This document shows, in pieces, positions 4,825 through 37,106 of a DNA stretch of 64,000 bases. Origin of the DNA: Escherichia coli 042 (lineage in GTDB: Bacteria > Pseudomonadota > Gammaproteobacteria > Enterobacterales > Enterobacteriaceae); assembly GCF_000027125.1 (NCBI RefSeq), contig NC_017626.1; one strand, given 5' to 3'. A program made the position numbers and the translations under genes. Below the pieces are notes generated by a model. That model worked only from the letters and a program-made list of their open reading frames with translations, did not search any database and was not told where the DNA came from. The stretch's first letter is position 1; the number at the start of each line of letters is the position of its first letter.

Positions 4825-5280
4825 TCAGTTAACGTTTTTTCCGGAAACGGTAATTAGCAGTGGATGGTAGTCCTGGGGATCGAAAACCGATAACGGCAGA
4901 CTGACACGATGGCCGTTACTTTCTTCAGTTGCTTTAATGATTTCGGTTGTGGCGACATTTTCCACGCACTCCGTTTCCAGAAATGCGTCTGTGGTTCGCG
5001 TGGCATTACTGTCACCAAAAGCTTCCGTTTCCATTTTTCTGGTCACCAGCGTCTGACCATATTTGTCTTTGAGTTGCAGAGTGATGGTGAGGGGGCCAAA
5101 CCCTTCATCGTTTCCGCCATTATCCAGCCGGAACTGGTAAGCACAAATATTTCCCGGGAGCCATATCGTATCTGTATTGCGTATACTGATGTAACGTTGA
5201 TCCTGTGCCCGGAGTGGGGCAGACCACGTTAACCCCAGAATGAAGGCGGTAATCATGCAGGTTTTGAACAGGTGAATCAT
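4825..5280 (-). CDS. Predicted secreted protein with N-terminal signal peptide (YkfB/IrmA-like family suspected)
   Basis: Hydrophobic N-terminus MITAFILGLTWSAPLRAQ then hydrophilic body; family assignment from memory only. Confidence 0.4.
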   Translation of the reverse strand: MIHLFKTCMITAFILGLTWSAPLRAQDQRYISIRNTDTIWLPGNICAYQFRLDNGGNDEGFGPLTITLQLKDKYGQTLVTRKMETEAFGDSNATRTTDAFLETECVENVATTEIIKATEESNGHRVSLPLSVFDPQDYHPLLITVSGKNVN

Positions 5281-5355
5281 GGTATTTACCTCTCTGAATC
5301 ATGACGATGACACTGACAAGTCAGGTGATAAAACGTAAAAGGTGCAGAATACTCG

Positions 5356-7878
5356 TTATGCCGGTAACTCCGGGGGTAATGCTTCTTCCAGCCGGTTAAC
5401 CATATTGCCGAGATGGGATGCATCATATTCCATGACGGGGCGTTGCCTGATGATACTGACCACCAGTGGTTTGATTAACATATTGGTCGCGGCCCGTTGT
5501 TGTATACCGGCGGCGAAAATGATCTCCAGAGCATTCTGATCGATAACACGGGCCAGATTCGCGTTCAGATTTTCTGTTTCATGTCCGGTCAGCAGGAAAC
5601 TGCCGGCAAGCCATGTCACCTGTTCCTGAATCATTGCCAGAATTTTGACGCGATCTTCTTCAACCAGCGCTCCGGCAATTTTTCCTGATACAGCGGAGGC
5701 AATCATTCCCCCCAGAACACCGCCAACCACACGCCCTGTCAGTGCACCAAATGGTCCCAGTGGACTGAACAGTATCCCGCCCGCCACTGACCCGACAGCT
5801 CCACCTGCCACACCGGAAGATGCCACGGCAAGATTCCTGATGAACTGCGTACCGGAGATCCGTCCCCGCAACATTTTGATCATGTCAGGGCCGGTTGTGA
5901 CAGCTACCAGTGCCAGAGATGTCACCAGCGTACCCTTCATCACTTTGTTCAGGGCACTGATATTTCCTGTACCGGTCCCCTTCTGAAGAGCCAGTCGGAC
6001 AGTCGGACTGGCCGTCGAAAAATCAATGTGCTTCAGCATACCCTGAACAACACTGAGCCGGTGAAGTTGCTGGGTTGTGACGTAGACAGCCAGTGTGCGG
6101 GTGAAGGTTTTTCCTGCCTGGACAGCAGCTGTCTGCAGGGCAGCATCGCGATCGCCGGTGCTGAGCCAGAAGACCGATGCCGTCAGGGCAAAACTGATCC
6201 CTCCGGCCGCCAGACTGACAACCGAACCCTCGGCAATATCATAAGTGACCGATTCGATGGTCCCGAACCGGGTGATATTACGGGCCTGGGTATAAGTCAG
6301 ATGTCCCCGACGAATCAGCCGGGACGCTTCTGCGGGATCGGTTACACCAGGTACTTTACCTTCGCGGATCTTATTCCTCATGGTTTCAACAGCGCCGGCA
6401 TACTGATCACGGGGGACTTCCAGTTGCATGGGGCCATGATTTCCCATGTAACGATACTGTCCGTTTTGTCCGTCGAATGCCGCACCGACGCTACGGGCTG
6501 CAGTTGAACAATATTTCGTCTGGATCTCTGTTCCGCTGACCAGTCTGTCTGCTCCATTTCTGGCATTATTATCACCGAGGATCCGTGCGTTTTTCAGACG
6601 GACTCTGTCGACAATATGGTTTCCCCGTTCAGCGGCAAACCCATGTCCCTGCCCTCCGGAAGCAAACATTTTCTCATTTGTACTCCAGGTTTCCGGCAGT
6701 TTCATGAGAATCAGACCATTCGCCGTTGCATCGGAAATAAAACTGTTGTAGGGGCGTTCATAAATTTCCTGACACAGTGTTTCTGTTTCGCGACAAAGAG
6801 AGGAGCAGTACCATTCCGGATCCGGCTTATGATTTTCCGGGGCATGATGTACTTCTGTCAGCCCGCAGGAGGCACAGATACGAAGCTCATCCACGTGATG
6901 GAATGATACAAAACGGCGACCTTCTGAAAAGGGATACCAGTCACCGCCGTCCAGGCAACGATCGAGAAAATCGTCATTCGCTTCCGGTGATAAATTCAGG
7001 CGGTTCCGGAAGAGGGTTTTCAGTTCATCAGGGGTAAATGACAGGCTCTCTCTCAGCTTTTCGTTGAAACCCGCCATGTTTCTTTCATACCAGGCATTGT
7101 CCAGTAGCCAGTTTCCGTCTGCCAGTTCAAATTCCCTCAGTTCTCCCCGGGAAATCCGTTGTGAAATGAGTGTCAGCCAGATGCGCTCCGTCAGCGTTTC
7201 AGGAAGGCTGTAATCGTTTTGCAAACTGCTCAGCCATGATTTACTGTTGAGCACCGGTTGTTCTTCCAGTGTCTGGCTGATGGCACTGGTCAGTCTTTTC
7301 AGCGCCTGGATCTGGCTGGCCGCCCATAGCAGCGTCACTAATGCAGCCAGCCAGTACAACAACCCGCCCCACCACATCAGTGAGGGTGAAATATCGAACT
7401 GCAATGCGATCAATGGTGCGTATGCAGAACACGCCATAAGGAAAAAGGCAGTATAAAAACAGCAGTAATACCCGTTAATTTCCTTGCTGATATCTTCAGG
7501 TGTGAGCCCGTTCTGCTGAATGGTTCTTATCTGCACGGGAAGAGCCAGCAGACCAGCGGCGAGAGCGGTGGTCAGAATAAATTTTACAGAGTCAAAAGTA
7601 TGAGCCTCCAGTGCGATATGTTTACCATCAAGTCCCCACATGAAGCTGATGATCATTCCGGCAATCGTCAGAAATACGCCTGCCAGCCAGCGAATATGGA
7701 ATAACCGGGTTATGCGTTCAGTGATATAGCCAGCCAGTAAAGCCGGACCGAACAGACACAGCAATATGAACCCTGCCAGCGCAGACGCTGTGCTGGTTAA
7801 TGCTCTGAACAAAAGGCGAAGAATGGCAAATCCTGCGATCAGCAGAATCAGCGCGCCGACTATCTGTAACATAGTCAC
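5356..7878 (-). CDS. Large inner-membrane protein, YeeR/YfjW-like
   Basis: 840 aa; multiple hydrophobic helices at N-terminus and Gly-rich hydrophobic C-terminal region; sits where yeeR lies relative to flu in CP4-44. Confidence 0.55.
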   Translation of the reverse strand: MTMLQIVGALILLIAGFAILRLLFRALTSTASALAGFILLCLFGPALLAGYITERITRLFHIRWLAGVFLTIAGMIISFMWGLDGKHIALEAHTFDSVKFILTTALAAGLLALPVQIRTIQQNGLTPEDISKEINGYYCCFYTAFFLMACSAYAPLIALQFDISPSLMWWGGLLYWLAALVTLLWAASQIQALKRLTSAISQTLEEQPVLNSKSWLSSLQNDYSLPETLTERIWLTLISQRISRGELREFELADGNWLLDNAWYERNMAGFNEKLRESLSFTPDELKTLFRNRLNLSPEANDDFLDRCLDGGDWYPFSEGRRFVSFHHVDELRICASCGLTEVHHAPENHKPDPEWYCSSLCRETETLCQEIYERPYNSFISDATANGLILMKLPETWSTNEKMFASGGQGHGFAAERGNHIVDRVRLKNARILGDNNARNGADRLVSGTEIQTKYCSTAARSVGAAFDGQNGQYRYMGNHGPMQLEVPRDQYAGAVETMRNKIREGKVPGVTDPAEASRLIRRGHLTYTQARNITRFGTIESVTYDIAEGSVVSLAAGGISFALTASVFWLSTGDRDAALQTAAVQAGKTFTRTLAVYVTTQQLHRLSVVQGMLKHIDFSTASPTVRLALQKGTGTGNISALNKVMKGTLVTSLALVAVTTGPDMIKMLRGRISGTQFIRNLAVASSGVAGGAVGSVAGGILFSPLGPFGALTGRVVGGVLGGMIASAVSGKIAGALVEEDRVKILAMIQEQVTWLAGSFLLTGHETENLNANLARVIDQNALEIIFAAGIQQRAATNMLIKPLVVSIIRQRPVMEYDASHLGNMVNRLEEALPPELPA

Positions 7879-7992
7879 TCCGTGATGAATATCATGTTAT
7901 TGTGAATGCCAGTGAATGTGGCACTGAAATGTTTTCCCCCGTCCGGGTCCCGGTCATGATGACCGGAACCACAGAGAGGCAATGCAGAATTA

Positions 7993-10900
7993 TCAGAAGG
8001 TCACATTCAGCGTGGCCTGACTGTTATAACCTTCAGCGCTGCTGCCGCTGACGCTGTGGGCATAACCGGCCTGAACGCCCAGGGTGATATTTTCCCGGAC
8101 ACGGGCTTCCAGTCCGGCCTGCAGATCCAGTGAAGTGCCATTCTGTGAGGGAGAGAACGTCATCCCGCTGCCTGCGGTGGAGGTCCCCACACGCATATCA
8201 CCCCGGGAGCTGAAGGTGCGGATAACGGAAGGCTGTACCCACCAGTTCACCGGCAGTTCACGCACACTGTGTTTTGCACTGTCACGCAGGGGGGCACGGG
8301 ATGAGGTGCCTTCACCAAAGGTCATATCGTTGTGGCTGCCCAGACGGAAACCGGCACGCACATGTTGTGCACTGCCATGCCCGAACTTCACATAACCGGC
8401 GTTGTCCTTACCGTCATCCAGCGAAAGCCCCTGCCAGGTGTACTGCAGCCGTGGCTCCAGCATCAGGTTGTCAGTAATACTGAAGGGCAGACCGGTTTCC
8501 AGTGAGCCCAGCCAGCCCCAGCCCCGTGCGCGGAAGTCGTTATTGCCCGATGACGCTTTCATACTGTGGCGGGTTCCCTGTGCCACAATGTCAGCCCACA
8601 GGCCGGAGGAGGTGTGTGTCAGGTTCATATATCCGCCCAGGCTGCCGGCATCATCCCGGACCGTGCCGGCGCGGGAGCCGTCATCATCCTTAACATCAAC
8701 GGAAGAATGGCCTGCAGCACCATACACTCCTGTCGTCAGTGACATACCGGCGACCTCTGTTCTGAGCAGGTCACCCTCCAGACGGACGAAGCCATAGCTG
8801 CCGCTGCTTTCCGGCGTGGCCCCACGGGCAATACCGCCGTTGTTATCGTGACCGAGATGGCCGCCCTGAATGCTGAGACGGACGCTGTTATTTTCACCGT
8901 TTACACCGGTCTGATGGCTGCGTGAGCCTGCCAGAATCCGGTCATAGTCCATTGCCTGTGTCAGCATGGAGGCGTACAGGGGGACTTCAGCACGATAACG
9001 TTCTTCACTGCGCAGATACCAGCTCTCATCACTGTCCCGGTTGAGGGTGTAGTTAAAGGCCCCGGCCTGCAGCATATTCCCCTGGACAAAAGCCCCTTCC
9101 TCCGTGGTGGCACCGTTAATGGCCTCAACCACCTGAATACCCTTACCGGTGGTCGCCAGCCCCGTACCACTGTTGCCGGCGTTCACCAGATTCAGGATGG
9201 TTTTTCCGGTTGCCCTGCCACCGTCAATGACCAGTCTGTCAGCATTGTTCTGCGCCATATCCGGGCGTACACGCAGGCTGATGGTGCCATTCTGCCCGTT
9301 CAGGTTTTTCACCTGCAGGGTTGCCGGTACGAACTTCCCTGTGCGGGTGGAGGTGAAATGAATCTGTCCGGCATGGCTGAGGTCATCCACCACCGACTGC
9401 ACCGTGGCGTTATCAGGGATATTCCAGGTGGCACCGGATGTCAGGGTGACATTCGTGGGGTCAATGGCACCGTTCAGCACTGTGCTGCCGGTCAGCTTCA
9501 GGGCCGTGCCGCGCTGAGCGATGACATCCGTGGTGACGGTACTGTCGTTCAGCGTCAGCGTGCCTTCATTCAGGTTGACGGTTTTCTGGGTGAGTGTGGT
9601 GTTGCTGACAGTGAGTGTGCCACTTCCTGATTTTTCCACCCTGCCGTTACCGGTAAGAGCGCCTCCCTGCAGGAGTGCATCACCTTCACGGATGGTCAGG
9701 GTATCGTTATTCACCGTTTTCCCGGAAAGGGTAAGCGTGGCACCGTTATTCAGCGTGGTGGTGCCCGCCAGCGAGCCCCCTCTGGCAGTGAACAGTCCGC
9801 CATTTACCGTGGTATCCGTGGCCGTATCACCGGCGTTCAGCGTGAATGAACTGCCTTTTTCCAGCATCAGGGCATCCGCCTGACCGCCCCCGATACGGAA
9901 TGCCGTTCCGTCGCTCCGGGTACCACTGACAGCGGCCCCGGAATCGGCCAGCAGTACACCGCCATTCCCCATGGATACGGTGGTGGCGGCACCACCGTTG
10001 CGGACATCCAGCGTTCCGCCATCATCCACACGGGTATTAGTGGCTGTGTGTCCGCTCAGCACATCCAGACGTCCGCCATTTTCCAGTACGACATTATCAG
10101 CCTTACCCGCCAGAACGGAGAATGCTCCCAGGCGGTTTGTGCCGGTGACGGTTGCAGCTGTGCTGGTAACCAGTGCACCTCCCGTGTTCTGGGTGACATC
10201 AGACGCTTTACCGCCGGCATTCACCTGCAGCTTTCCTTTCTGGTTGATGGTGGTATGCGCGGTAGTTCCTCCTTCCTTAATCACCTGCCAGCCCCCCTCG
10301 TTAATTACCGTGTTCAGCGCAAGTCCGTATTTGTGCACATACTGGTTTCCTCCCTCCAGCCGGGTGTTATGTGCCTCGCCGTGTACCGTCTGGTCACCGC
10401 CGGCGTAAATGAGGGTGTCCCGTGCCATCCCCGAAGACCAGATAACCTGCCGGCCATTTTTGTTGATGGTGGTGGATTCAGCCGTCCCTCCGACCATCTG
10501 ACCGCTGGACACATTTTCAGACTCCGGACCACCTTCTGCACCGGTGTTGACGATGGTTCCGGTTGCCTGCCCGCCATGTTTAATGGTCTGGTAGCCAGAC
10601 TGGTTAATCACCGTTCCGGATGCACTGCCGCCTGCATGTATCCATTGTTCACCACCGTTAAGGACAGTACCGTAAGCCTGCCCGCGCAGATTCTGTCCTC
10701 CACCGGCACTGATAACCGTATCCGTGGCACTGCCACCTGCCATGACATCCTGCAGACCGTTTGCGGTGACCGTGGTGTTTCTGGCAGTGCCACCCCGGGC
10801 TATCTGCTGACCGCCGGTGTTGTCATCAGAGTCCGGCCCCAGCTCAAGCCCGGTACTGACAGTCACGCCATCAGCTGTTCCGGATACAAACTGGTTGTCA

Positions 10901-11112
10901 TGGTTTACCAGTGTTCCGCCATTCACTGTTTCACCCGGGTGCACAACGATGTCAGCAGCCAGCACCGGGAGTGACGTGACTGCGGCAAGAGACAGTGCAA
11001 CCGCCACACCGCCACGTTTACCCCGTGCGCGGGCCAGTTCGGAGGCAACCACGAAAGCGCCCGTAATGTGATTCCATACCAGCCTGTAGCAGGTATTCAG
11101 ATGTCGTTTCAT
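7993..11112 (-). CDS. flu: Antigen 43 self-associating autotransporter adhesin
   Basis: N-terminus MKRHLNTCYRLVWNHITGAFVVASELARARGKRGG (extended signal peptide), repetitive beta-helix passenger, C-terminal beta-barrel ending ...TLNVTF; start taken at second Met (1039 aa). Confidence 0.9.
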   Translation of the reverse strand: MKRHLNTCYRLVWNHITGAFVVASELARARGKRGGVAVALSLAAVTSLPVLAADIVVHPGETVNGGTLVNHDNQFVSGTADGVTVSTGLELGPDSDDNTGGQQIARGGTARNTTVTANGLQDVMAGGSATDTVISAGGGQNLRGQAYGTVLNGGEQWIHAGGSASGTVINQSGYQTIKHGGQATGTIVNTGAEGGPESENVSSGQMVGGTAESTTINKNGRQVIWSSGMARDTLIYAGGDQTVHGEAHNTRLEGGNQYVHKYGLALNTVINEGGWQVIKEGGTTAHTTINQKGKLQVNAGGKASDVTQNTGGALVTSTAATVTGTNRLGAFSVLAGKADNVVLENGGRLDVLSGHTATNTRVDDGGTLDVRNGGAATTVSMGNGGVLLADSGAAVSGTRSDGTAFRIGGGQADALMLEKGSSFTLNAGDTATDTTVNGGLFTARGGSLAGTTTLNNGATLTLSGKTVNNDTLTIREGDALLQGGALTGNGRVEKSGSGTLTVSNTTLTQKTVNLNEGTLTLNDSTVTTDVIAQRGTALKLTGSTVLNGAIDPTNVTLTSGATWNIPDNATVQSVVDDLSHAGQIHFTSTRTGKFVPATLQVKNLNGQNGTISLRVRPDMAQNNADRLVIDGGRATGKTILNLVNAGNSGTGLATTGKGIQVVEAINGATTEEGAFVQGNMLQAGAFNYTLNRDSDESWYLRSEERYRAEVPLYASMLTQAMDYDRILAGSRSHQTGVNGENNSVRLSIQGGHLGHDNNGGIARGATPESSGSYGFVRLEGDLLRTEVAGMSLTTGVYGAAGHSSVDVKDDDGSRAGTVRDDAGSLGGYMNLTHTSSGLWADIVAQGTRHSMKASSGNNDFRARGWGWLGSLETGLPFSITDNLMLEPRLQYTWQGLSLDDGKDNAGYVKFGHGSAQHVRAGFRLGSHNDMTFGEGTSSRAPLRDSAKHSVRELPVNWWVQPSVIRTFSSRGDMRVGTSTAGSGMTFSPSQNGTSLDLQAGLEARVRENITLGVQAGYAHSVSGSSAEGYNSQATLNVTF

Positions 11113-11294
11113 CAGCATTTCCTTAATCAGAGTGAGGGTGAATAAAAAAGCCGGTATCCACAGATGTGGATACCGGCAGGTAAAGGGTTACAGTGCCGGA
11201 GGTCCGGCTGACGGAAGTTTCTGACGTGTGGCTCTGTTGTTCCCTGAATCTCATGTCTGTGTGTATCTGCGCACGTTGCTAACAGGAGTTATTA

Positions 11295-11345
11295 TTAGCA
11301 TGACGATCGATATAAACGATCGATAAAATAGGTATCGATCGTTTT
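11295..11345 (-). promoter_or_regulatory. agn43 phase-variation switch: three closely spaced GATC sites (Dam/OxyR region)
   Basis: Sequence acGATCgatataaacGATCgataaaataggtatcGATCg ~190-230 bp upstream of the flu start codon; protein binding not testable from sequence. Confidence 0.65.
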
Positions 11346-12427: not shown

Positions 12428-13447
12428 TTACTTCCTTCGCTTGTGTTCAAGATATTTCTCTGTAATCAGCATTTCAAAAAACTCTCCTGTTCTCAGACCG
12501 TAAACAGTTCTGAGCTCATCAAGCATTTCTTTCACATTGCTTCTTATATGTATATTAATGGCCTTTTTACCATCACTCCGATATTTGTCCTTTTGTTTTT
12601 TCTGATGCCAGGCATGATTTATTCGTGTTCTGAACAGTTCAATGGTATCAGGCGCTTCTTTCCATAAAGCAAAGGCGACAAGAGAGGCAAGATAATATTC
12701 TTTCGTTGAAGATGGTATGAACCACCGGGTCACTGGGTTATGTACTGGATGTTTTTCATCCTGTTTTTGTTTCAGTCTTGTCCAGAACCACTGACACATT
12801 TCATCATCGTCAGGAAGGAACCACTTAAACTTTTGACAAGCGCTTTTCTTTTTAAGCCACGCCTGCCTGAGTTCCTCGAGGTATATGCTTTTTGCATTTT
12901 TATTAATTAAAGAATGGCAGGAGTCAAAATATGAAATGATTACTTTTATTCGTTCGTTATGGGATGATGGATTATCCGGAAGGTTACTTTTTTTGTAAGT
13001 ATTTAACGTTTCATCGGTAACTGTTCGTATTTTCCTGACTTCAATTCCGTTTTTTATTCCTGATGAATTATGGTTTATTTTCGGGAATTTTGTATGGTCT
13101 TCCTTCGACAGATAAATAGTAGTCCAGGTAAAGAAAGTCGCAAGTTCGTCAGTTTTCAACCAGAGAAAACTCTCTTCAGGCAGTATTGCCTGCCCTGCAA
13201 TAATTTCAAGTTCATTAATTTCTTTGCTGAGAGCTTCTTCTGCAGTCGAACCAAAAACACCAAAAGAATTGTTTGAAGCTTTATAATACTTTTCTTTTAA
13301 AAACGAATTAACATTTCTGATACAGTTTTGTGGGTTGTCAGGCGCAAACTGAGGGAATTCATTGGGGTATTTGTGATTCAGATATTCGGCATAAAACCGA
13401 CATTTACGGGGATCTTTGCATTTGATAAGCATCTGTTCGTTATTCAT
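12428..13447 (-). CDS. Hypothetical lysine-rich protein, low GC, no recognisable domain
   Basis: 339 aa uninterrupted ORF in AT-rich DNA; followed upstream by ~1.4 kb ORF-poor AT-rich sequence. Confidence 0.45.
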   Translation of the reverse strand: MNNEQMLIKCKDPRKCRFYAEYLNHKYPNEFPQFAPDNPQNCIRNVNSFLKEKYYKASNNSFGVFGSTAEEALSKEINELEIIAGQAILPEESFLWLKTDELATFFTWTTIYLSKEDHTKFPKINHNSSGIKNGIEVRKIRTVTDETLNTYKKSNLPDNPSSHNERIKVIISYFDSCHSLINKNAKSIYLEELRQAWLKKKSACQKFKWFLPDDDEMCQWFWTRLKQKQDEKHPVHNPVTRWFIPSSTKEYYLASLVAFALWKEAPDTIELFRTRINHAWHQKKQKDKYRSDGKKAINIHIRSNVKEMLDELRTVYGLRTGEFFEMLITEKYLEHKRRK

Positions 13448-14941
13448 TATCTCACTCCATGTCGCCTCTCTTATAACAAAATCGTCTCAATTTTATTTTG
13501 TCACTAAGTGATTATCAAATGTTTTTGTTGTGATTTGTTTATGTTTTTAAATGTCTATGTCATGTTATCAGTGTTTTTATATAAAGATACATTGATGTTT
13601 TTATGATGGTGAAAAATCATATTTTCTTTTATATTCATTTGGTTATGATTGTTTGTTCTGCATTTGGGGGATGACAGAAAAGAATGGGCTGTGTTGATCA
13701 CATGCGCCGTATGCGCTGTCCAGGTTACAGCGCACCTCAATATTCAGTGTTTTCCTGTTGACTGGCATTGTTAATCTTATGTTTTTGGTTTTGTTTTATT
13801 GTGTGGTTGTGAATGTTGTGTTTGGTTTGATGGTTGAGAAAGAAAAAAGAAGACTATGATGCACTAATCAGGAAATATTTTCGACGCCGGTTGAGTTAAA
13901 AGAACAGATAGAGTGGACAGGTGTTGTGTTAATAGTTTACGGCTGACAGCATTCTTATTTTAATAACAGGTGTTATTATTTATGGATTTATACAGACGAT
14001 ACTCCCGCTAAATAGTCAGGTGATGATGGTCGTTGAGTGGTTTTATAAGCTACGTATAGCTCTGTAAGACTTATTAATTCAACGATGACTACCGTTTATT
14101 GATATACATGTATTCGGGAAATGTCATAAAAAATGTCACGTTGTTTGCAGAATCTTTTGTTTTTTAGTTTTTGATACGCAATGACTAAGCAGGAGGACTC
14201 ACTTTGTTTGTATGCTGACCGTGATCGTCAGTGGAGATGAACAATTGACTCTTACACTGAAAAATATACTCTCTTGTTTTTTATCGTTTATCTGCATGAA
14301 ATAAATAATCTTCAGCATTTTTCATGTGAATTTCATCATCTTACCCTGAATGTTCATTTTATCAGTATGATATTCCTTTGTTTACTGATAAAATTAACCG
14401 ATAAATGTTCTTGTTAAGATTGCCAGAATGACAGTTTTTGCTGATTCCGTGCAATGGAAGAGATATTATATCATCTATTTAAGCAATAAGTTTAATACAA
14501 ATTTCAGAAGATGTGTTGGTGAGTTGATGACTAATTTTCAGAGGGGGATGGAAAAGTGTATGGAATCCCACAAAGAAAAAATCGTTATTGTTCAGTTGAC
14601 GTTTATTTCTGGGTGATGACTCCAGTCAGCAGAATATGTTTTTTTCGATGAATGACCCAATAACTTTTTCGTGAATTTCCACGGAGCATGAAAAGCAAAT
14701 CGTTTTCCGGTCCAGCCGTTTGATGTGGGAACGGGGGCAGATGGTGGTGCTCAATGCGCCGGGTAAATATCAATACGATTTGAGGAACCATTTGCTGGTT
14801 AATCTCTTTCCGATAGCATTGGATGCAGCAATCACTACATCCAACGTGAATAACCATGAATTGCACAGAAACAATATACCTGCGACCCTCTCCGGAAATT
14901 CCGGTATCACTGACTACGTACCGCCCGGGAGTGATTATGAA

Positions 14942-15599: not shown

Positions 15600-15806
15600 T
15601 TACGGACGGGATTGTGCAATACGCGCCTGCAACCAGGCTTCCACTTCACTTTTCAGCCATCGGGAGCTGCGGCCGAGTTTGATGGGGGCCGGAAAGGCAC
15701 CATCCTTGATGAGCTTGTAAAACCACTTATCGGTTAAGCCGGTCAGTTGAGTGATAAACGCCATGTCGACCATCTGGTCATCCATCAGCGAAACTGGGGT
15801 ATTCAT
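15600..15806 (-). CDS. alpA: AlpA-family phage transcriptional regulator (HTH)
   Basis: 68 aa from internal Met; ...ITQLTGLTDKWFYKLIKDGAFPAPIKLGRSSRWLKSEVEAWL... matches AlpA/prophage CP4-57 regulator fold. Confidence 0.8.
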   Translation of the reverse strand: MNTPVSLMDDQMVDMAFITQLTGLTDKWFYKLIKDGAFPAPIKLGRSSRWLKSEVEAWLQARIAQSRP

Positions 15807-16504
15807 GAAAATGTTCCTCCGGATGTTGTTAATCTCAACCGGCGTTGGTGATGAAAAACGCACCACCTTCACTGGCATAACAACCGGGGAGAAACGTAAA
15901 AAATGAGCAGGGGAATATTCCTGTCGGGAGATAAACAGGGAGCATGATGCTGGGATACCCGGTGGCTACCGCGAAACGATGTTTCTCGCGCGTACGCACG
16001 ACAGAGAAGGGATGATTTTCGGGAGGATGAGGGGAAGAACCGTCGTTCTTATAATTGCAGAGTTATTTACGGGGCGGTTACGGTGGGGCAGCTCGTGCCT
16101 TGTGGGCAGGGACAGGTATCACCGATGGGATAAGACTGTCTGATTGGTATTATAAATATATAAGAGAGATCAAACACATGAGTTCATATCTGTGAAATAA
16201 ACACTGTGAGTGTGATCAGTGGGTATGAGAACGCAGTAGCAACAGATTACGTTGTACTCACAGGGCTATCCCTGATAGCTGGCGTATAACCTGCGTATAT
16301 AAAACGTACCTGCAACACACGTGAACAGAGTGCATTAAGCATCCGTCTGAGCGGTAAACGTATCCGACCTGGTGAGTGACAGTCTGAGAGACCGGTTAAG
16401 TGGTGGTGCGGGAGTAATGAGTTTGGGGTGGGTACCAGAATGCCAGTCAGGTGCGGTATGCTGGCAGTATCACGTTAATTGCAGCATAAAGTGATGAGAG
16501 GCTA

Positions 16505-16717
16505 ATGGAAGTTAAAACCAAAGAAGACTGGCTGTATCAGTTCCGTCGTTGTTCATCCCGGGAGACGCTGGAAAAAGTGATTTCCCACACACGTTATAAA
16601 CTTACCCTTGCGGAGCTGGAAGCCTTCAACTCTGCGGTTGATCACCGACTGGCAGAACTAACCATGAACAAACTTTACGATCGCGTTCCGGCTTCTGTCT
16701 GGAAATATGTTACCTGA
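16505..16717 (+). CDS. Hha/YmoA-family nucleoid-associated regulator paralog (H-NS co-modulator)
   Basis: 70 aa; ...[27 protein letters not shown] closely matches recalled Hha C-terminus [27 protein letters not shown]. Confidence 0.85.
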   Translation: [70 protein letters not shown]

Positions 16718-17333
16718 ACGTTCGGTAATCACAGCGGTATTGTGCCGGGCGTTATATGCCTGTGATTCTTTTGCTCTTCTCTGGTTGCTGCAAAGCTGAA
16801 TATGTTCCTGTTGTTGGAGGCCGAGGTAATACCGGGAACGTTAAGCGGTATAGCGACAACAAAGAATTCGAAATCAAAAGGGAATGGTGTACGGAGGTGC
16901 GGGCGGTAATGGGCCGATTTTCGGGCATTACCGACCTCTGCTGAGGTTTTCTCGTATTAGCCGGGGATCCGGTGCGTTGAATATTGACGGCATAAACCGA
17001 CAGGCAGAGTCAGCACCAGCAGTGACGTCAGTAGACAGCGCCGACGATCGGTATTCCGGTAATGGGCAACATCCGTATTATGAGTAATTGCCTTACCACA
17101 ATCCCTGCACACCGTTTTGTGTATCACCATAGCTCCCTCCTCACAGTCTTATCTGTAACCGGTTTTTGGCATTAAAAAAACAACGCTGAAAATTCAGCCG
17201 TCAGTCCGGAGACGACAATCGGGTTATCACAGAGTGCCTGAGATATTGCCCGGTTGGAGGTCACTTCAGGGACTCTGCGCATTTTTTACGGCGTGGTTAT
17301 TCCGTATGAACGAAACCATACGGAGATTTAACC

Positions 17334-17903
17334 ATGACATACGAGTACAACCCCTTCTGGCAACAACGTATCCGTGAGACGGTGCTGCGCGCACTGGATG
17401 TTCATCCCCGTCTGACGGCATTGCGGATTGACCTGCGTCTCCCGGATGTACCGGCAGCAACTGACGCAGCAGTGATATCCCGCTTCATCAATGCCCTGAA
17501 AGCCCGAATCGATGCTTATCAGAAGCGTAAGCGCCGTGAAGGCAAACGCGTGCATCCCACAACCCTGCATTACGTCTGGGCCCGGGAGTTTGGGGAGTGC
17601 AAAGGTAAAAAACACTATCACCTGATGCTGCTGGTCAACCGGGATACCTGGTGTCGTGCCGGCGATTACCGCGCTCCGGGATCACTGGCCGGGATGATTA
17701 AACAGGCGTGGTGCAGTGCCCTGGGAGTGGATACCGGAGATCATACCACGCTGGCGCATTTTCCGGTCAGGCCGGCGGTGTGGCTGGAACGCGATGATGA
17801 CACCGGCTTTCAGCAGGTGCTGGAGCGTGCTGACTATCTGGCGAAGGAGAGTACCAAAGCTTACGGCACCGGTGAGCGCAACTTTGGCTGCAGTCGTGGC
17901 TGA
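17334..17903 (+). CDS. Inovirus Gp2-like protein (YfjJ/YagK family)
   Basis: 189 aa; motif KKHYHLMLLVNRD and context next to alpA as in CP4-57. Confidence 0.7.
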   Translation: MTYEYNPFWQQRIRETVLRALDVHPRLTALRIDLRLPDVPAATDAAVISRFINALKARIDAYQKRKRREGKRVHPTTLHYVWAREFGECKGKKHYHLMLLVNRDTWCRAGDYRAPGSLAGMIKQAWCSALGVDTGDHTTLAHFPVRPAVWLERDDDTGFQQVLERADYLAKESTKAYGTGERNFGCSRG

Positions 17904-18064: not shown

Positions 18065-18454
18065 ATGACGATGTACGCAAAATCCTTTCTCGCACTTGAT
18101 GGCAACGGACGTCTGACCGGTGCCCGTACCGCACAGACAGCGCCATACGATCGTTACACCTGCCACCTCTGTGGCAGTGCTCTCAGATACCACCCGCAAT
18201 ACGACACTGAACGTCCCTGGTTTGAACACACTGACGACGGGCTGACTGAGCATGGTCATGAGTGCCCTTATGTCAGACCGGAGCGCAGAGAAATACTGTT
18301 GATTAAACGCTTACGGCAATTCGTACCGGACGCCTTACCCGTAGTGCGTAAAGCCAGCTGGCACTGCAGACAATGTCACCACGATTATTATGGGGAGCAG
18401 TACTGCACACACTGTCATACAGGGCGCTTCAGTGAGGAGGTGGTTGCAGAATGA
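18065..18454 (+). CDS. Cysteine/histidine-rich putative zinc-ribbon protein
   Basis: CHLCGSAL...WFEH...HECPY and WHCRQCHHDYYGEQYCTHCH motifs. Confidence 0.45.
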   Translation: MTMYAKSFLALDGNGRLTGARTAQTAPYDRYTCHLCGSALRYHPQYDTERPWFEHTDDGLTEHGHECPYVRPERREILLIKRLRQFVPDALPVVRKASWHCRQCHHDYYGEQYCTHCHTGRFSEEVVAE

Positions 18455-18863
18455 ACGGTATAAAAACGGGGCTGGGATCACGCCGGGTGAGCACATTATC
18501 AGTGCCGATTCTGCGCTCAGCAGAAATATCCGGCATTGTTTCTGTCTTTCCTGTCGTGGCCGGTTGATTTTGCAGACAGATGCTCAGGGGGCGTGGTTTG
18601 AGCACGATTTACATGCCCTGAGCGCGCAACAGAAGGCGGCCTGCGTGGTGCTGAATCCGGAAAAATCCCATCCTTACATTGATGATATGGCGATGTTTTT
18701 ATCGCCATTACCTGTCGTGCTGGAGTGGCATTGTGTGATGTGCGGGCAGCATTTTTCCGGGAAAAAGTTCTGTGAAGCCTGTGGCACGGGGATTTATTGC
18801 AGAGCGGCATGTACGAAGTATGTTTACAGATACCAGCCAGATTTGCTCCGGGACCAGGAGTGA
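18390..18863 (+). CDS. Second Cys-rich zinc-ribbon module in a different frame; possibly frameshifted continuation of the preceding gene
   Basis: Repeats the same motif pattern (CLSCRGRL...WFEH..., WHCVMCGQHFSGKKFCEACGTG); overlaps previous ORF by 65 nt; no good start near the module beginning. Confidence 0.35.
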   Translation: MGSSTAHTVIQGASVRRWLQNERYKNGAGITPGEHIISADSALSRNIRHCFCLSCRGRLILQTDAQGAWFEHDLHALSAQQKAACVVLNPEKSHPYIDDMAMFLSPLPVVLEWHCVMCGQHFSGKKFCEACGTGIYCRAACTKYVYRYQPDLLRDQE

Positions 18864-20874: not shown

Positions 20875-21372
20875 ATGAGCAGTTCGTTTCAGAATGAAAT
20901 CCCGAAAGCAAGGGTAAATCTGAAATTAGACCTACATACGGGTGGTGGGCAGAAGAAAGTGGAGCTTCCGCTCAAACTTCTGGTTGCCGGTGATTTCAGT
21001 AACGGACAGGAAGAGCGTCCACTGTCAGAGCGTGTAAAAACGGATATTAATAAAAACAATTTTAATGATGTTCTGGCAGATATCTCCCCGTCTGTACATC
21101 TGAATGTGGAGAACACGCTTGCCGGTGATGGCTCTGAAGAGAGCATCAGCCTGACTTTCCGCAATATGAACGATTTCACGCCAGAGCAGGTCGCCCGACA
21201 GATTCCCCGTCTTAAAGCCATGCTGGCCATGCGTAGCCTTCTGCGGGACCTGAAAGCCAATCTGCTGGATAACGTGACTTTCCGTAAAGAGCTGGAAAAA
21301 ATTCTGCGTGACCCGGCACTGAGTCAGACGCTGCGTGATGAACTGCGTGCACTGGTGCCGGAAAAGGCGTGA
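20875..21372 (+). CDS. tssB: T6SS contractile sheath small subunit TssB (VipA)
   Basis: AGGAGA RBS before internal ATG; KARVNLKLDLHTGG...ELPLKLLVAGDFS sheath small-subunit pattern. Confidence 0.9.
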   Translation: MSSSFQNEIPKARVNLKLDLHTGGGQKKVELPLKLLVAGDFSNGQEERPLSERVKTDINKNNFNDVLADISPSVHLNVENTLAGDGSEESISLTFRNMNDFTPEQVARQIPRLKAMLAMRSLLRDLKANLLDNVTFRKELEKILRDPALSQTLRDELRALVPEKA

Positions 21373-21393
21373 TTTAACGGATTACGAGAGAAA

Positions 21394-22938
21394 ATGCTGA
21401 TGTCTGTACAGAAAGAAAAGAACGTTGCAGAGAGCGTGGTATCTGAAGCGCATGCCGGCGACAGCGTATATGCTTCCCTGTTTGAAAAAATTAACCTGAG
21501 TCCGGTATCTGCCCTGAGTGCACTGGATATCTGGCAGGATCCACAGGCCATGTCAGAAGCATCTGCAGATGAACGTCTGACGGCAGGGATGCAGGTGTTT
21601 ATGGAGTGTCTGGCAAAAGCCGGCACGCAGGTGGAAAAACTCGATAAAGCGCTGATTGACCATCATATTGCAGAGCTTGATTATCAGATCAGCCGTCAAC
21701 TGGATGCTGTGCTTCATCATCCGGAATTTCAGAAAGTGGAGTCGCTGTGGCGGGGCGTGAAGTCCCTGGTGGATAAAACGGACTTCCGCCGTAATGTGAA
21801 AATTGAGCTGCTGGATCTGTCCAAAGACGATCTGCGTCAGGATTTTGAGGATGCGCCGGAAATTATTCAGAGCGGCCTTTATCTGCAGACCTATGTGGCT
21901 GAGTATGACACGCCGGGTGGTGAGCCCATTGCCGCCCTGGTTTCAGCCTGGGAGTTTGATGCATCTGCACAGGACGTGGCGTTGCTGAAAAATATTTCCC
22001 GGGTGGCGGCATCTGCACATATGCCGTTTATTGGTTCAGTTGGCCCGGCGTTCTTCCAGAAAGAAACCATGGAAGAGGTGGCTGCCATCAAGGATATTGG
22101 CAACCACTTTGAGCGTGCCGAGTACATCAAGTGGAATGCTTTCCGTGAGACGGACGATGCCCGCTATATTGGCCTGGTGATGCCCCGTGTACTGGGACGC
22201 CTGCCGTATGGCCCGGATACCGTACCTGTCCGCAGCTTTAACTATGTTGAAGAGGTGAAAGGACCGGACCACCATAAATATCTCTGGACGAACGCGTCTT
22301 TTGCCTTTGCAGCCAACATGGTGCGCAGTTTTGTCACCAACGGCTGGTGTGTTCAGATCCGTGGGCCTCAGGCCGGTGGTGCGGTGCAGGATTTGCCAAT
22401 CCATTTGTATGATCTGGGAACCGGTAATCAGGTCAAAATTCCGTCAGAGGTGATGATCCCGGAAACGCGGGAGTTTGAATTCGCGAATCTGGGCTTTATT
22501 CCGCTCTCTTACTACAAGAACCGGGATTATGCCTGCTTCTTCTCTGCTAACTCCGCCCAGAAACCGGCGCTGTACGATACGCCGGATGCAACGGCGAACA
22601 GTCGTATTAATGCCCGTCTTCCCTATATCTTCCTGCTGTCCCGTATTGCGCATTACCTGAAGATCATTCAGCGGGAAAATATCGGTACCACCAAAGATCG
22701 CCGTCTGCTTGAGCTGGAGCTGAATAACTGGATCCGGGGACTGGTGACGGAGATGACCGATCCGGGTGATGAACTGCAGGCCTCGCATCCGCTGCGTGAC
22801 GGAAAAGTGGTGGTGGAAGATATCGAAGACAATCCGGGATTCTTCCGCGTGAAACTCTACGCCGTACCGCATTTCCAGGTAGAAGGTATGGACGTCAGCC
22901 TGTCACTGGTTTCGCAGATGCCGAAGGCAAAAGCGTAA
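21394..22938 (+). CDS. tssC: T6SS contractile sheath large subunit TssC (VipB)
   Basis: 514 aa, conserved sheath motifs (FQKVESLWRG, RVAASAHMPFIG, NLGFIPL). Confidence 0.92.
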   Translation: MLMSVQKEKNVAESVVSEAHAGDSVYASLFEKINLSPVSALSALDIWQDPQAMSEASADERLTAGMQVFMECLAKAGTQVEKLDKALIDHHIAELDYQISRQLDAVLHHPEFQKVESLWRGVKSLVDKTDFRRNVKIELLDLSKDDLRQDFEDAPEIIQSGLYLQTYVAEYDTPGGEPIAALVSAWEFDASAQDVALLKNISRVAASAHMPFIGSVGPAFFQKETMEEVAAIKDIGNHFERAEYIKWNAFRETDDARYIGLVMPRVLGRLPYGPDTVPVRSFNYVEEVKGPDHHKYLWTNASFAFAANMVRSFVTNGWCVQIRGPQAGGAVQDLPIHLYDLGTGNQVKIPSEVMIPETREFEFANLGFIPLSYYKNRDYACFFSANSAQKPALYDTPDATANSRINARLPYIFLLSRIAHYLKIIQRENIGTTKDRRLLELELNNWIRGLVTEMTDPGDELQASHPLRDGKVVVEDIEDNPGFFRVKLYAVPHFQVEGMDVSLSLVSQMPKAKA

Positions 22939-22953
22939 GGCAGGTGTCGGGAA

Positions 22954-24291
22954 ATGAAGATTTATCGCCCATTATGGGAAGACGGGGCTTTTCTGATGCC
23001 CCAGCAGTTTCAGCAGCAGGCTGCCTGGGATGTTCATCTGGCAGACAGCGTTGCCAGAATGGGGCTGGCGCATCCATGGGGCGTGGTGGCTGCAGAGTTT
23101 GATGACTCTCTGTTACCGCTTTCACGGTTGAATGCCACCCGTCTGATTGTTCGTTTCCCGGACGGAACGCTTATTGATACGGAACGCGCGGATAATCTGC
23201 CTCCGGTCTGTGATTTATCGACGGTTTCTGATCGTTCCCTGGTGGATATTGTGCTGGCACTACCGTTACTGAATGCTAACGGTGGCAACCTTGATAATGG
23301 CAGTGAGAGCGAGCGTCCGCGTCGCTGGAAATCAGAAAGGGTGAATGTGCAGGAGCTGGCCGGGCATGAGCAAAGCGAAGTGGCGGTATTGCGGCATAAC
23401 CTGACTCTGCGCATGGCTCATCAGGAAAATGCTGCCTGGCTGACCTGTCCCGTTACCCGTCTTGTTCGTGATGCACAGGGACAGTGGTGCAGGGACCCGC
23501 GTTTTATTCCCCCTCTGCTGACGCTGTCTGCCAGTCCTTCGCTGATGACTGAACTTGCGGAGTTGCTTCATCACCTGCAGGCGCGTCGCCAGCGACTGAT
23601 GTCCATGCGTCGGGAGAACAATGCCCGTCTTGCGGATTTTGCTGTGGCGGACGTGTCGTTGTTCTGGTTGCTGAATGCCCTGAACAGTGCGGAGCCTGTT
23701 CTGAAAGAGTTGCTTGACATGCCTTACCGCCACCCGGAACTGTTGTACAGGGAGCTTGCCCGGCTGGCAGGCTCCCTGCTCACATTCTCGCTTGAGCATA
23801 ATGTGGATGCGGTTCCGGCATACCATCATGAAACACCTGAAAATGTTTTCCCACCATTGCTTTCTTTGCTGAACCGGCTGCTGGAGGCAAGCCTGCCTTC
23901 CCGTGTGGTTTTCATTGAACTGAAACAAAAGGGTGTGATGTGGGAGGGGGCATTACATGATGCGCGTCTGCGCGAAGGGGCTGATTTCTGGCTTTCAGTG
24001 CGCTCTTCCATGCCCGGGCATGAACTGCAGACGAAGTTTCCGCAGCTATGCAAAGCCGGGAGCCCCGATGATGTGTCTGAGGTGGTGAATGTGGCGCTGA
24101 GCGGGGTCATTATCCGTCCGGTTACGCATGTACCGGCGGCCATTCCGCTCCGGCTGGAAAACCAGTATTTCGCGCTGGATTTAAGTACGGATGCGGCCCG
24201 GGCGATGCTGGACGCGGGGCGTTGTACTTTCTACACCCCGGCATCGCTGGGAGATGTGAAACTGGAACTTTTTGCGGTGCTGCGGACATGA
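22954..24291 (+). CDS. tssK: T6SS baseplate subunit TssK
   Basis: MKIYRPLWEDGAFLMPQQFQQQ N-terminus typical of TssK; 445 aa. Confidence 0.88.
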   Translation: MKIYRPLWEDGAFLMPQQFQQQAAWDVHLADSVARMGLAHPWGVVAAEFDDSLLPLSRLNATRLIVRFPDGTLIDTERADNLPPVCDLSTVSDRSLVDIVLALPLLNANGGNLDNGSESERPRRWKSERVNVQELAGHEQSEVAVLRHNLTLRMAHQENAAWLTCPVTRLVRDAQGQWCRDPRFIPPLLTLSASPSLMTELAELLHHLQARRQRLMSMRRENNARLADFAVADVSLFWLLNALNSAEPVLKELLDMPYRHPELLYRELARLAGSLLTFSLEHNVDAVPAYHHETPENVFPPLLSLLNRLLEASLPSRVVFIELKQKGVMWEGALHDARLREGADFWLSVRSSMPGHELQTKFPQLCKAGSPDDVSEVVNVALSGVIIRPVTHVPAAIPLRLENQYFALDLSTDAARAMLDAGRCTFYTPASLGDVKLELFAVLRT

Positions 24292-24941
24292 ATAAACCTG
24301 TTATCTCCCGGGCTGAACAGATTTTTTATCCCGGCTGGCTGATGGTCAGCCAGCTGCGCAGCGGGCAACCGGTTGAGGATGGTAAGGCCCTGTATCGCCG
24401 TGCCTGTCAGCTGGTGAAACAGGCGCGTGAAGAGCTGGCCGAAGCAGGATTCAGTCAGAAAAGCAGTGACATCATGTTGTATGCCTTCTGCGCCCTGCTG
24501 GACGAGAGTGTACTGAACCGCGAAAAAACAGACGATGGCTGGCGCACCTGGCAGCAGGACCCGCTGCAGGCTCATTTTTTTGGTACGCTCAATGCCGGTG
24601 AAGAGCTCTGGGAGCGTATTCGTGAACAACTGAAATTACCAGCGCCGGATGTGGCGGTACTGACATGCCTCTGCCGTACGCTTCAGCTCGGTTTTACCGG
24701 TCAGTACCGGTCGCAGGATGATGAGCGTCGCGAAGATGTAATACGCGCACTGACAGCGCGTGTTCCTGCATTTACTTTCGCACAGGATGCGCCGGTGGTG
24801 GTGCGTGCACCGGGTTACCGTGCTGGCAGAACGATGTACTGGTTGTCATGGGGGGCGGGTATTGTGACGCTGGCTGGTCTCTGGTGTGTGCTTTCTTCTG
24901 TGCTTGCAGACCAGGTGGCACGGCTTACCGGGCAGGGATAA
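24288..24941 (+). CDS. tssL: T6SS membrane subunit TssL (DotU-like)
   Basis: ATGA overlap with tssK; cytoplasmic DotU-like domain plus one C-terminal TM helix (WLSWGAGIVTLAGLWCVL). Confidence 0.85.
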   Translation: MNKPVISRAEQIFYPGWLMVSQLRSGQPVEDGKALYRRACQLVKQAREELAEAGFSQKSSDIMLYAFCALLDESVLNREKTDDGWRTWQQDPLQAHFFGTLNAGEELWERIREQLKLPAPDVAVLTCLCRTLQLGFTGQYRSQDDERREDVIRALTARVPAFTFAQDAPVVVRAPGYRAGRTMYWLSWGAGIVTLAGLWCVLSSVLADQVARLTGQG

Positions 24942-24943
24942 CC

Positions 24944-26674
24944 ATGCACGTACGTTCCCGTCTCTGGCTGACAATACTGAGTCTGTTCCTGACACTGTGG
25001 CTGATTTCGGGATTCCTGCCGCTGTCTGCAGTAAACCAGATAATACTGACCCTGGTTTCAGTTGTGGCGGCGGGGCTTGTGCTGTGGTACCAGTGGCGTT
25101 GTCTGTCTTCCCGTCGTGATATCCCGGAGAAGGCCGGCGATGACGGTCTGCCGCCTGAGTATTTTCAGGGACATGTGCTGCTTGTTGCCGGAAACTCAGA
25201 TGCGTGGTTCGAACCCGGTCAGGCATACCGGGAAACAGCATCGGGATGGTATCTTCGTGTGGATACGCCGGAGCAGATGAGAATACTGGCAGAACGGTTG
25301 TCGTACAGCCGTCCGGCCCTGTGTGGCCAGGTCGTGGTCATGCTGGGACTTTTACCGGAGCAGCATACCTCAGATGAAGCTTTCCTGTCGTGGTTGCGGA
25401 ACTGGCAGCGTGCAGTCATGCAGTGCCGGCAGTGGCTGAATACCACGCCACCGGTGCTGGTTACATTGATGGTTTCAGAGCCGTCACCACAAAACACATC
25501 CTTAAATAAGCACTCTACACACTGGTTTACACTGACACCGGACCTGCCGGGAATGCATATACGCCTGACGGAAGCCGGAGCAATTCCGGCAGAGGAATGG
25601 CTGCAGGCGTGTGATGCAGCGTCCAGGCTCCGGTGCGTCAGTGAACTGTTATGGCTGAATGCCATGTTGTCCTGGTACAACCGGGTTACTGATGCCCTGA
25701 CAGCTATTTGCCGGCAGGAGCACTTTTATTTCCGGCCGGTTGCCGTTGGATTCTGTCTGACGTCGGTTGCGGCCCGCCCCGGTAATCTCTGGCAACAACA
25801 ACTGACGTCCCTCACTGCATTGCCACCGCCTGCCGGCGTGTCATCACAGGTATTGCCGTTGCCGGATATTCTGCTGTCCGGTATTCCCCGTCATCGTGGA
25901 CTCAGTCACTGGCACAGACTTTGTCGCCAGACGGGGGCGATTGTCGGTGTTTTTCTTCTGCTGGCTATGCTGGCGTCTTTTATGAATAACCAGCGGCTGG
26001 TTCGCAGCGTGGGGGAACACCTGACGGCCTGGCACCGGATGCGCGGATATTCATCTGAATCGAAAACAACAGCACTGCAACGTCTTCAGGCTGACAGCCA
26101 GTTACTGAACGACTGGCAGCAACGTGGTGTGCCACAGCGTTACGGACTGGGATTGTATCAGGGAATGTGGCTGATACCGCCGGTTGAGCGTGCGACTGGT
26201 GAGTGGGTTGCACCACGGCCTCCCCGTCCGGTGATACAGAAAGTTACTCAGACGCCGAAAACGGTTCGCCTTAACAGCCTGGCACTGTTTGATGCCGGTA
26301 AATGGACGCTGAAGCCGGGCGCCACAAAATGGCTGGTGAATGCCCTGGTGGATATTAAGGCAAAAGCAGGCTGGCTGATTGTGGTCAGTGGTCACACGGA
26401 TAATACCGGTGACCCGCTGCGCAACCAGGCCTTGTCCCTGAAGCGTGCAGAGGCCGTTCGCGACTGGATGCGGGATACCGGCGATATTCCCCAAAGCTGT
26501 TTTGCCGTACAGGGATACGGTGAAAGCCGCCCTGTGGCCCCGAATGACACGGCGGAAGGCCGTGCGCGTAACCGCCGTGTTGAAATCAGTCTGGTACCGC
26601 AGGCCGATGCCTGTCGTCTGCCGGACGTTTCCCCTGCGCCGGAAGAGGGCGCATCAGAAAACATAACGGAGTAA
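24944..26674 (+). CDS. tagL: TagL-like T6SS accessory membrane protein with C-terminal OmpA-type peptidoglycan-binding domain
   Basis: N-terminal TM helices; C-terminus VSGHTDNTGDPLRNQALSLKRAEAV...NRRVEI is the OmpA/MotB motif; position after tssL as in EAEC Sci-1. Confidence 0.78.
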   Translation: MHVRSRLWLTILSLFLTLWLISGFLPLSAVNQIILTLVSVVAAGLVLWYQWRCLSSRRDIPEKAGDDGLPPEYFQGHVLLVAGNSDAWFEPGQAYRETASGWYLRVDTPEQMRILAERLSYSRPALCGQVVVMLGLLPEQHTSDEAFLSWLRNWQRAVMQCRQWLNTTPPVLVTLMVSEPSPQNTSLNKHSTHWFTLTPDLPGMHIRLTEAGAIPAEEWLQACDAASRLRCVSELLWLNAMLSWYNRVTDALTAICRQEHFYFRPVAVGFCLTSVAARPGNLWQQQLTSLTALPPPAGVSSQVLPLPDILLSGIPRHRGLSHWHRLCRQTGAIVGVFLLLAMLASFMNNQRLVRSVGEHLTAWHRMRGYSSESKTTALQRLQADSQLLNDWQQRGVPQRYGLGLYQGMWLIPPVERATGEWVAPRPPRPVIQKVTQTPKTVRLNSLALFDAGKWTLKPGATKWLVNALVDIKAKAGWLIVVSGHTDNTGDPLRNQALSLKRAEAVRDWMRDTGDIPQSCFAVQGYGESRPVAPNDTAEGRARNRRVEISLVPQADACRLPDVSPAPEEGASENITE

Positions 26675-30560: not shown

Positions 30561-31096
30561 AAATAAGAGCCTTTCGTTATCGTTCTGCTTTACTGCTCTG
30601 TCTGACGTTACTGACAGGATGCCCCGGACGCGGGGATTATTATCGGTTTGATGAAACAGTAACGGTCAGCACAAGAGGCGACAATGTGTGTTTCAGTGTC
30701 CCGGAGCCAGAGGACTACCAGCCAGTCAGCGTTTCCATCGCTCCACGGGGAACCCGATTCAGGGAGCGGCAAATTACATCTGAACCCTCGCTTCGTATCG
30801 TGAACGGCCAGCTGTGCATTCCGCCTTCATTCTGTCTTTTTCCTGATAAAGGCCAGTTCATTGTCAGGTCTGTTCTGCACTCTGAGCGCGATAAGGACAC
30901 ACCGCGCATCATGGTTGCCGGCATAGAGATTGCCGACGGGTGTATTTTCGATATCCCGCTTAATGACATGGAGGTCGTGAGGCCATACGGTGAGCTGAAA
31001 AGCAGTAATGTTCAGACTGACCAGAGCGAACGTCATGGTCCCTGCAAATACCCTTTCAGAGCTGTTCGTGGAGTGATAAATCATGAATCTCACTGA
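30554..31096 (+). CDS. Predicted lipoprotein (possible cognate immunity protein)
   Basis: Signal peptide with lipobox LLTGC; overlaps preceding gene end and vgrG start. Confidence 0.5.
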   Translation: MVKIRAFRYRSALLLCLTLLTGCPGRGDYYRFDETVTVSTRGDNVCFSVPEPEDYQPVSVSIAPRGTRFRERQITSEPSLRIVNGQLCIPPSFCLFPDKGQFIVRSVLHSERDKDTPRIMVAGIEIADGCIFDIPLNDMEVVRPYGELKSSNVQTDQSERHGPCKYPFRAVRGVINHESH

Positions 31097-35906: not shown

Positions 35907-35984
35907 AGTGATTTCTCATATGGATATGATGAAGATATTAAGGAGTTTATCAGAGATAAAACTTATCCTTACGGTAACTGGTGA
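35307..35984 (+). CDS. tli1: Tli1-like lipoprotein immunity protein, copy a
   Basis: Lipobox LLTGC; immediately downstream of tle1; 225 aa. Confidence 0.7.
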   Translation: MTRDKIIFIAPLLALLTGCNSVSSRYADLDKTEWGYKKLPYDEWKFLFIYPKALPALATQALMVDGEGYKTTYQYLDNTEPSQVSVGRWNDHLGATESYYNKGKALPLMLRFCWDSIIDKKSYETLIFFKKGTWEQMVTPYADNRWNETYYRSTMIIGLAPEGKVRVWLGDRGNPVVPQLDAKITTVSGDKMKMCKGVTKSDFSYGYDEDIKEFIRDKTYPYGNW

Positions 35985-36058
35985 CTCAAACCAGAATAAT
36001 GATGAGCATATAAAAAGAAAATCTAATTTTCATCTGGCGTAAAAAAACGGGCAATAGC

Positions 36059-37103: not shown

Positions 37104-37106
37104 AAC

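Follow-up and report, generated by a model that had tools for sequence, protein, structure and literature searches.

Two extra paralogs of hha, hha2 (EC042_4516) and hha3 (EC042_4796), have been described in EAEC 042 (Prieto et al. 2016, Sci Rep 6:25973; PMC4864382), and hha2 was taken up again by Bernabeu et al. 2019, BMC Genomics 20:313. In 042 the level of hha2 mRNA is only slightly below that of hha, and that of hha3 is much lower. Of the three ag43 copies, EC042_2242 was found by qRT-PCR to respond to all three genes, whereas EC042_4511, which lies beside hha2, and EC042_4803 were not significantly affected (PMC4864382). In 042 the flu-yeeR-irmA "region 2" is duplicated, and every one of its genes was up 2.2-6.2-fold in an hha hha2 double mutant and 2.2-5.9-fold in an hns mutant (PMC6480617). 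The genes with the strongest derepression in the double mutant overlap the set under the control of H-NS2, an extra H-NS paralog (PMC5861252). Hha has been shown in vitro to favor bridged H-NS filaments, with stronger silencing and RNAP pausing (PMC6009659), and its E25 and, above all, its D48 are critical for H-NS binding (PMC4519777). The chromosomal hha gene belongs to a core tomB-hha operon, in which tomB lies directly upstream of hha in K-12. TomB has been reported to inactivate Hha through a cysteine.

Judged by the published oligonucleotides, the gene at 16505..16717 (+) in the 64-kb window, by which we mean the whole stretch of DNA analysed here, is the hha2 paralog (EC042_4516). The hha2-specific PCR primers (4516 forward and reverse) match at 16601-16620 and 16686-16707 with 0 mismatches, as does the check primer "4516 P1 UP" at 16345-16364, and of the two homology arms used to delete hha2 one fits 16469-16510 without a mismatch and the other 16712-16753 with 1 mismatch, so that the five published EC042_4516 segments, which cover gene and flanks and amount to 146 nt, differ from the window by a single mismatch. 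In contrast, the forward primer for hha3 (4796) has no match in the window within 3 mismatches and both hha3 deletion arms are absent from it, which makes the gene an hha2 allele; the hha3 reverse primer has 2 mismatches to the window. The gene order is compatible with this assignment, as agn43 lies five annotated genes away from hha2 in the window, matching the locus-tag spacing from EC042_4511 to EC042_4516; the EC042_4516 region of 042 would then have the same spacing and probably, like hha2 here, be followed by a T6SS-bearing island. The 601 bases around hha2 are 100% identical to those of E. coli 55989, the O104:H4 outbreak strains and a few relatives, and we infer that the results obtained for hha2 in 042 would carry over to the 55989 / O104:H4 lineage. 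The gene is already annotated in RefSeq as "hha, hemolysin expression modulator Hha" (WP_000453331.1 in NC_018658.1, from which the annotation was mapped as window position = record position - 856923), and it was named, surveyed and mutated in EAEC between 2016 and 2019. The original prediction of an island-encoded Hha/YmoA-family gene was thus correct and, in light of this earlier work, an ordinary finding.

Membership in the family is clear. The ORF, whose boundaries had been predicted exactly, runs from an ATG through 70 codons to a stop, and its translated product matches the PF05321 HHA profile over positions 3-57 of 57 with 95.6 bits (E=2e-27; the curated Pfam cutoff is 25 bits). In phmmer searches it matches the PDB entries of E. 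coli and Salmonella Hha, Yersinia YmoA and E. coli Cnu with E-values from 4e-22 to 2.5e-10, and alignment with the chromosomal hha and ydgT products, which had been proposed as a check, gave a gap-free alignment of 65 aa with K-12 Hha (58% identity) and an identity of 48% with Cnu/YdgT (BLASTP). No second Hha-like sequence was found by tblastn in the 64-kb window. An AlphaFold2 model, made from a small family alignment and having a mean pLDDT of 76, places helices at residues 6-13, 19-30, 35-59 and 63-68. The top Foldseek matches of the model in the PDB are the Hha chains 4ICG_D/C of the Hha/H-NS complex and the Hha NMR structure 1JW2, with TM-scores of 0.66-0.72 (0.70 for 4ICG) and a probability of 1.00, and all other matches have E>1. 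Hha2 has a mass of ~8 kDa, consists of a single domain in the four-helix Hha fold and has no DNA-binding domain. Residues E25 and D48 of Hha correspond to E23 and D46 of Hha2 and do not vary among Hha2, plasmid Hha, Hha, Cnu and YmoA; H47, R48 and Cys16 are also kept in Hha2 relative to Hha, the single cysteine C18 of Hha corresponding to C16 of Hha2.

The comparison with the described Hha proteins suggests how Hha2 would work. Hha2, a family member that was acquired horizontally and is borne in a CP4-type island backbone (alpA / hha / yfjJ-like), most likely docks through E23 and D46 on the dimerisation domain at the N-terminus of H-NS or of an H-NS paralog. The docked protein would add a basic surface that leads to bridged H-NS filaments and thereby to stronger silencing of AT-rich acquired genes, and it would do so in trans and in part redundantly with chromosomal Hha and YdgT. 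We consider it highly probable that intact hha2 of the expressed type encodes a co-repressor that works with H-NS on acquired DNA, in trans and with partial redundancy. An island that carries its own H-NS co-repressor provides a context for the silencing of Ag43 and other cargo in EAEC and O104:H4. It had been proposed that such a paralog could retune the H-NS silencing of neighboring islands. A part of this proposal stands, since Ag43, which had been named as a gene to examine, has been tested in 042, where EC042_2242 and region 2 are derepressed upon removal of hha, hha2 and hha3, but the part that concerns neighbors does not fit the adjacent EC042_4511. The RNA-seq data that bear on hha2 in 042 were obtained with the hha hha2 double mutant, and the share of the single gene in the observed effects is small and confounded by redundancy.

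Hha2 belongs to the same family as chromosomal Hha, but hha2 is not a duplicate of the core gene. Chromosomal Hha (b0460, K-12/Salmonella; 1JW2, 2MW2, 4ICG) has in common with Hha2 its length class, the four-helix fold, the E25/D48 pair, the cysteine and a nearly identical core of 15 residues, whereas at the DNA level the similarity between core hha and hha2 is confined to 52 bp at 79%. YdgT/Cnu (b1625; 2JQT), which has the same H-NS-binding role, conserves the DHR motif and the helix-2 E with Hha2, but its alignment to Hha2 contains two indels, it lacks the cysteine and it is acidic (pI 6.3 compared with 8.8 for Hha2). The closest relatives we found are encoded on plasmids: Hha2 is 84% identical to the Hha of an IncFIA/FII E. 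coli plasmid (CP098976.1) and 79% identical to that of a S. Infantis IncFIB megaplasmid (CP052797.1), and at least 5000 plasmid records carry a relative, most of them at 60-80% identity. The plasmid Hha loci that we compared with 16505-16717 (L015 5001-5207 and L016 4998-5207) encode the signature WLYQ/KLRRCSS...LEKVISH...FNSA, which is common to plasmid Hha and Hha2 and differs from chromosomal Hha. The plasmid genes lie in unrelated gene contexts, whereas hha2 is chromosomal and lies in a conserved alpA / hha / Gp2 island module. On these sequence relationships Hha2 is a member of a mobile-element (plasmid-type) Hha clade, a placement that is an incremental addition of the present analysis. 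The term "paralog" therefore holds for Hha2 in the sense of common family and not in the sense of a duplicate of core hha; an origin by recent duplication of core hha was rejected on the same identity values. A phage origin was also considered and set aside, as there was one weak phage match only, at 60% identity. In contrast to chromosomal hha, hha2 is located in an island and has no tomB-like gene beside it. K-12 TomB has no match in the window (best E=0.48, tblastn), and hha2 is therefore not part of a tomB-hha operon; the ORFs upstream of hha2 are at most 54 aa long and have no Pfam match.

An alternative explanation is that hha2 is a redundant passenger, a leftover of a plasmid-type "stealth" Hha that was once useful when the island was acquired and is now neutral and decaying. 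The much greater identity of Hha2 to plasmid Hha than to chromosomal Hha is consistent with such an origin, as are the modest effects of the single mutants in 042 and the state of the gene in other genomes. Complete E. coli genomes hold roughly 5,000 hha2-like loci; we classed 60 evenly spaced records out of 2853 positive ones by their best copy and inspected representative loci. A full-length, gap-free match of 213 nt was present in only 11 of the 60 records, and all seven alleles of this class that were inspected (the window and six loci) are intact. In 29 of the 60 records the match begins only at base 34 and reflects a 14-nt deletion after codon 8; PGAP annotates such alleles as pseudogenes with a "missing N-terminus" or as 49-aa proteins. 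A further 3/60 records have a 1-nt deletion that causes a frameshift, 11/60 are of the hha3 type and 6/60 contain more degraded forms with shorter partial matches. Truncation or frameshift has thus damaged the majority of hha2-like loci in complete E. coli genomes, which means that the function of hha2 is dispensable in many backgrounds. This census is, like the clade placement, an incremental addition of the present analysis. The damaged loci that were inspected are L005 (1951-2247), L006, L007, L011 (1501-1680), L012 and L009 (1987-2198).

The intact alleles, however, do not behave as expected for a neutral gene. The seven that were compared (the window, L014 and L017-L021) have a DNA identity of 93-97%, and 22 of their 27 variable sites are third codon positions. 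Of the 21 pairwise comparisons, 19 gave a dN/dS of 0.02-0.08, dS reached values of up to 0.47, and amino-acid variation is limited to five positions, including residue 35, which is a leucine in the window allele and a proline in most of the other intact alleles. The low dN/dS together with the third-position bias shows that hha2 is a real, constrained coding gene and no chance ORF, and the intact alleles are under strong purifying selection. Since hha2 is also transcribed near the level of hha in 042, where its deletion alters ag43 EC042_2242 (PMC4864382), we regard the passenger explanation as unlikely for the intact gene.

A related reading would combine decay with recruitment. A plasmid-type "stealth" Hha may have buffered H-NS when the island arrived, may later have been inactivated repeatedly, by the 14-nt deletion, by frameshifts or through the 5'-replaced hha3 form, and may have stayed under strong purifying selection only in those lineages that recruited it, as for Ag43 or the aai T6SS; the 55989 / O104:H4 lineage may then be one in which hha2 was recruited to silence island cargo. 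We offer this scenario as a speculation with a small chance of being correct. If it is true, surveys that use hha2 and hha3 as PCR markers mix functional and dead alleles. The published hha2 PCR product covers only the 3' 107 bp of the gene, and it would therefore not separate intact from 5'-damaged alleles where the primers anneal. For users of hha2 and hha3 as virulence markers, a positive PCR does not imply an intact gene.

The hha3 type deserves separate mention. Loci of this type (L008 1987-2163 and L013 1480-1656), which the 4796 primers match, occupy the same site upstream of the Gp2-family gene as hha2 and are ~90% identical to it over the 3' two-thirds, whereas their 5' third is unrelated to hha2. 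The 58-aa product called from a GTG start lacks helix 1, the cysteine and the equivalent of E25, and it carries H47N. Judging from these sequences, the 5' replacement may explain the very low expression of hha3 reported in 042, and it raises doubt about the status of Hha3 as a functional Hha.

A rival to the reading that we favor, in which Hha2 is a co-repressor acting in trans, is that Hha2 is a cis-acting or island-specific tuner of H-NS silencing whose preferred target is its own island, including the adjacent Ag43 gene, the tssB/tssC remnant and the aai cluster. The island is large and composite and adjoins the gsp/yghD locus. To the left of hha2, all on the - strand, lies a CP4-44-like module with cbtA/yeeU, radC, an antirestriction gene, irmA, a yeeR-like gene, agn43, a GTPase gene and alpA; to its right are the Gp2 gene, two zinc-ribbon genes, a tssB/tssC remnant, a complete T6SS of the aai type, IS debris and pic. 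The cluster of irmA, the gene for a yeeR-like membrane protein and agn43 (4825..11112, -, mapped from RefSeq; agn43 at 7993..11112) is, by analogy with EAEC 042, the type of target that is repressed by Hha, Hha2 and H-NS.

Distance is compatible with a local role, as ~5 kb separate hha2 from agn43 and ~14 kb separate it from the aai T6SS. The T6SS cluster includes tracts of 36-37% GC, between 35.1 and 37.0 kb and at 43.3-43.9 kb, and these AT-rich parts are therefore plausible H-NS substrates. It has also been reported that genomes with hha2 or hha3 tend to have flu, yeeR and irmA (PMC6480617). On the other hand, Hha is small, diffusible and devoid of a DNA-binding domain, so cis-specificity lacks a known basis, and in 042 the nearest ag43 copy, EC042_4511, was not significantly changed whereas the distant EC042_2242 was, which argues against a neighbor-specific role. 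The original prediction had extended the possible targets to the T6SS loci, which is speculative; our literature search on Hha, EAEC and type VI secretion found no report linking Hha paralogs to the EAEC T6SS. Taken together, an action in cis or specific to the island, the T6SS included, appears quite unlikely. It is highly improbable that Hha2 is instead an orphan toxin-like Hha, comparable to Hha of the Hha/TomB pair, that acts on growth, biofilm or persistence rather than on silencing, because the sole support for this is the conserved cysteine, read with the absence of a tomB-like gene beside hha2, whereas a chromosomal tomB is generally present in E. coli (K-12) and could act in trans, no toxicity of hha2 has been reported, and the phenotypes of the 042 mutants are a transcriptional derepression common to hns mutants (PMC6480617).

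As had been predicted, hha2 is placed between an alpA gene and a Gp2-like gene. On one side is the divergent gene for an AlpA-type HTH regulator (15600..15878, -; 15600..15806, 207 nt, according to PGAP), which is annotated in RefSeq and matches Pfam Phage_AlpA with E=8.7e-9, and on the other, downstream of hha2, is a YagK/YfjJ gene of the "inovirus Gp2 family" (17334..17903, +), also annotated in RefSeq and matching Pfam YagK_YfjJ_C with E=5.9e-48. A 2.5-kb query covering alpA / hha / Gp2 was found over at least 80% of its length in 1995 of 5426 complete E. coli genomes, and this divergent arrangement is a conserved backbone module of CP4-type genomic islands. The arrangement does not mark an inversion junction. 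No tRNA was found at the island edge, either in the window or beside yghD.

The description of the surroundings as AT-rich acquired DNA was right about the island location but not about the composition, given that the GC content is 47% for hha2 and 48% for the surrounding kilobase, compared with 50% over the window as a whole. Near hha2 the AT content is highest in a 2-kb tract at 12751-14700, where GC is 35% (minimum 29%). An IS1 remnant lies in this tract, and the left end of the tract covers part of a gene annotated as hypothetical. We consider this tract a candidate H-NS nucleation site.

The expression signals of hha2 can be described in part. A putative Shine-Dalgarno sequence, GAGAGG (16496..16501, +), is suggested by the sequence 3 nt upstream of the ATG, which is a short spacing, and it is conserved in the alignment of homologous loci with the hha2-type 5' end. 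The 626 bp that separate hha2 from the divergent alpA-like gene (15879..16504), which presumably contain both promoters, are 82-89% conserved in hha2-type loci, and a consensus scan gave no sigma-70 site upstream of hha2. A similar scan identified a terminator-like hairpin with a T-rich tail at 16746..16772 (+), ~30 nt past the hha2 stop codon, for which the evidence is weak, as the region contains 3 sites of this kind where chance alone would give 1.7. Two small ORFs at 16372..16494 (+) and 16756..16944 (+) were treated as non-genes, as they match no Pfam family and none of the homologous loci that were examined carries an annotated counterpart. A permissive Rfam scan of 15800-17400 revealed no structured RNA in the 620-bp stretches of intergenic DNA flanking hha2, and at the gathering threshold the only Rfam match in the whole window was the IS102 RNA (RF00124) near agn43. 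This match (11137-11342, -; 255 bits) lies between the GTPase (yeeP-like) gene and agn43, and its site is the upstream regulatory region of Ag43.

Several further features of the island were recorded. Between hha2 and the Gp2-family gene, at 16957-17130 (-), is an ORF of 57 aa that is annotated as hypothetical. At this position homologous loci have a conserved ORF of ~65 aa with a CxxC...CCPxC motif, a hydrophobic tail and a sub-threshold Pfam match to a zinc ribbon, and the copy in the window is probably degraded, because 10 codons including the second Cys pair are gone and its C-terminus is different. Downstream of the Gp2-family gene, at 18065-18863, are two tandem DUF7828 + Zn_ribbon_11 genes. 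The second of these is frameshifted according to RefSeq, yet there is an uninterrupted ORF of 157 aa at 18390..18863 that contains both domains and overlaps the first gene by 65 nt. At 20875-26082 a T6SS remnant, consisting of tssB and a C-terminally truncated tssC, is followed directly by genes for a GIY-YIG nuclease and a 3'-5' exonuclease, an arrangement suggesting that an insertion destroyed an older T6SS locus that was situated upstream of the intact aai cluster (30863-49230). Downstream of tssH, at 49427-62644, is a field of IS fragments (IS3, IS110, IS66, IS21/IS100) within which lies a frameshifted group II intron reverse transcriptase gene (50837-52344), and the pic autotransporter gene extends from 62795 to the end of the window.
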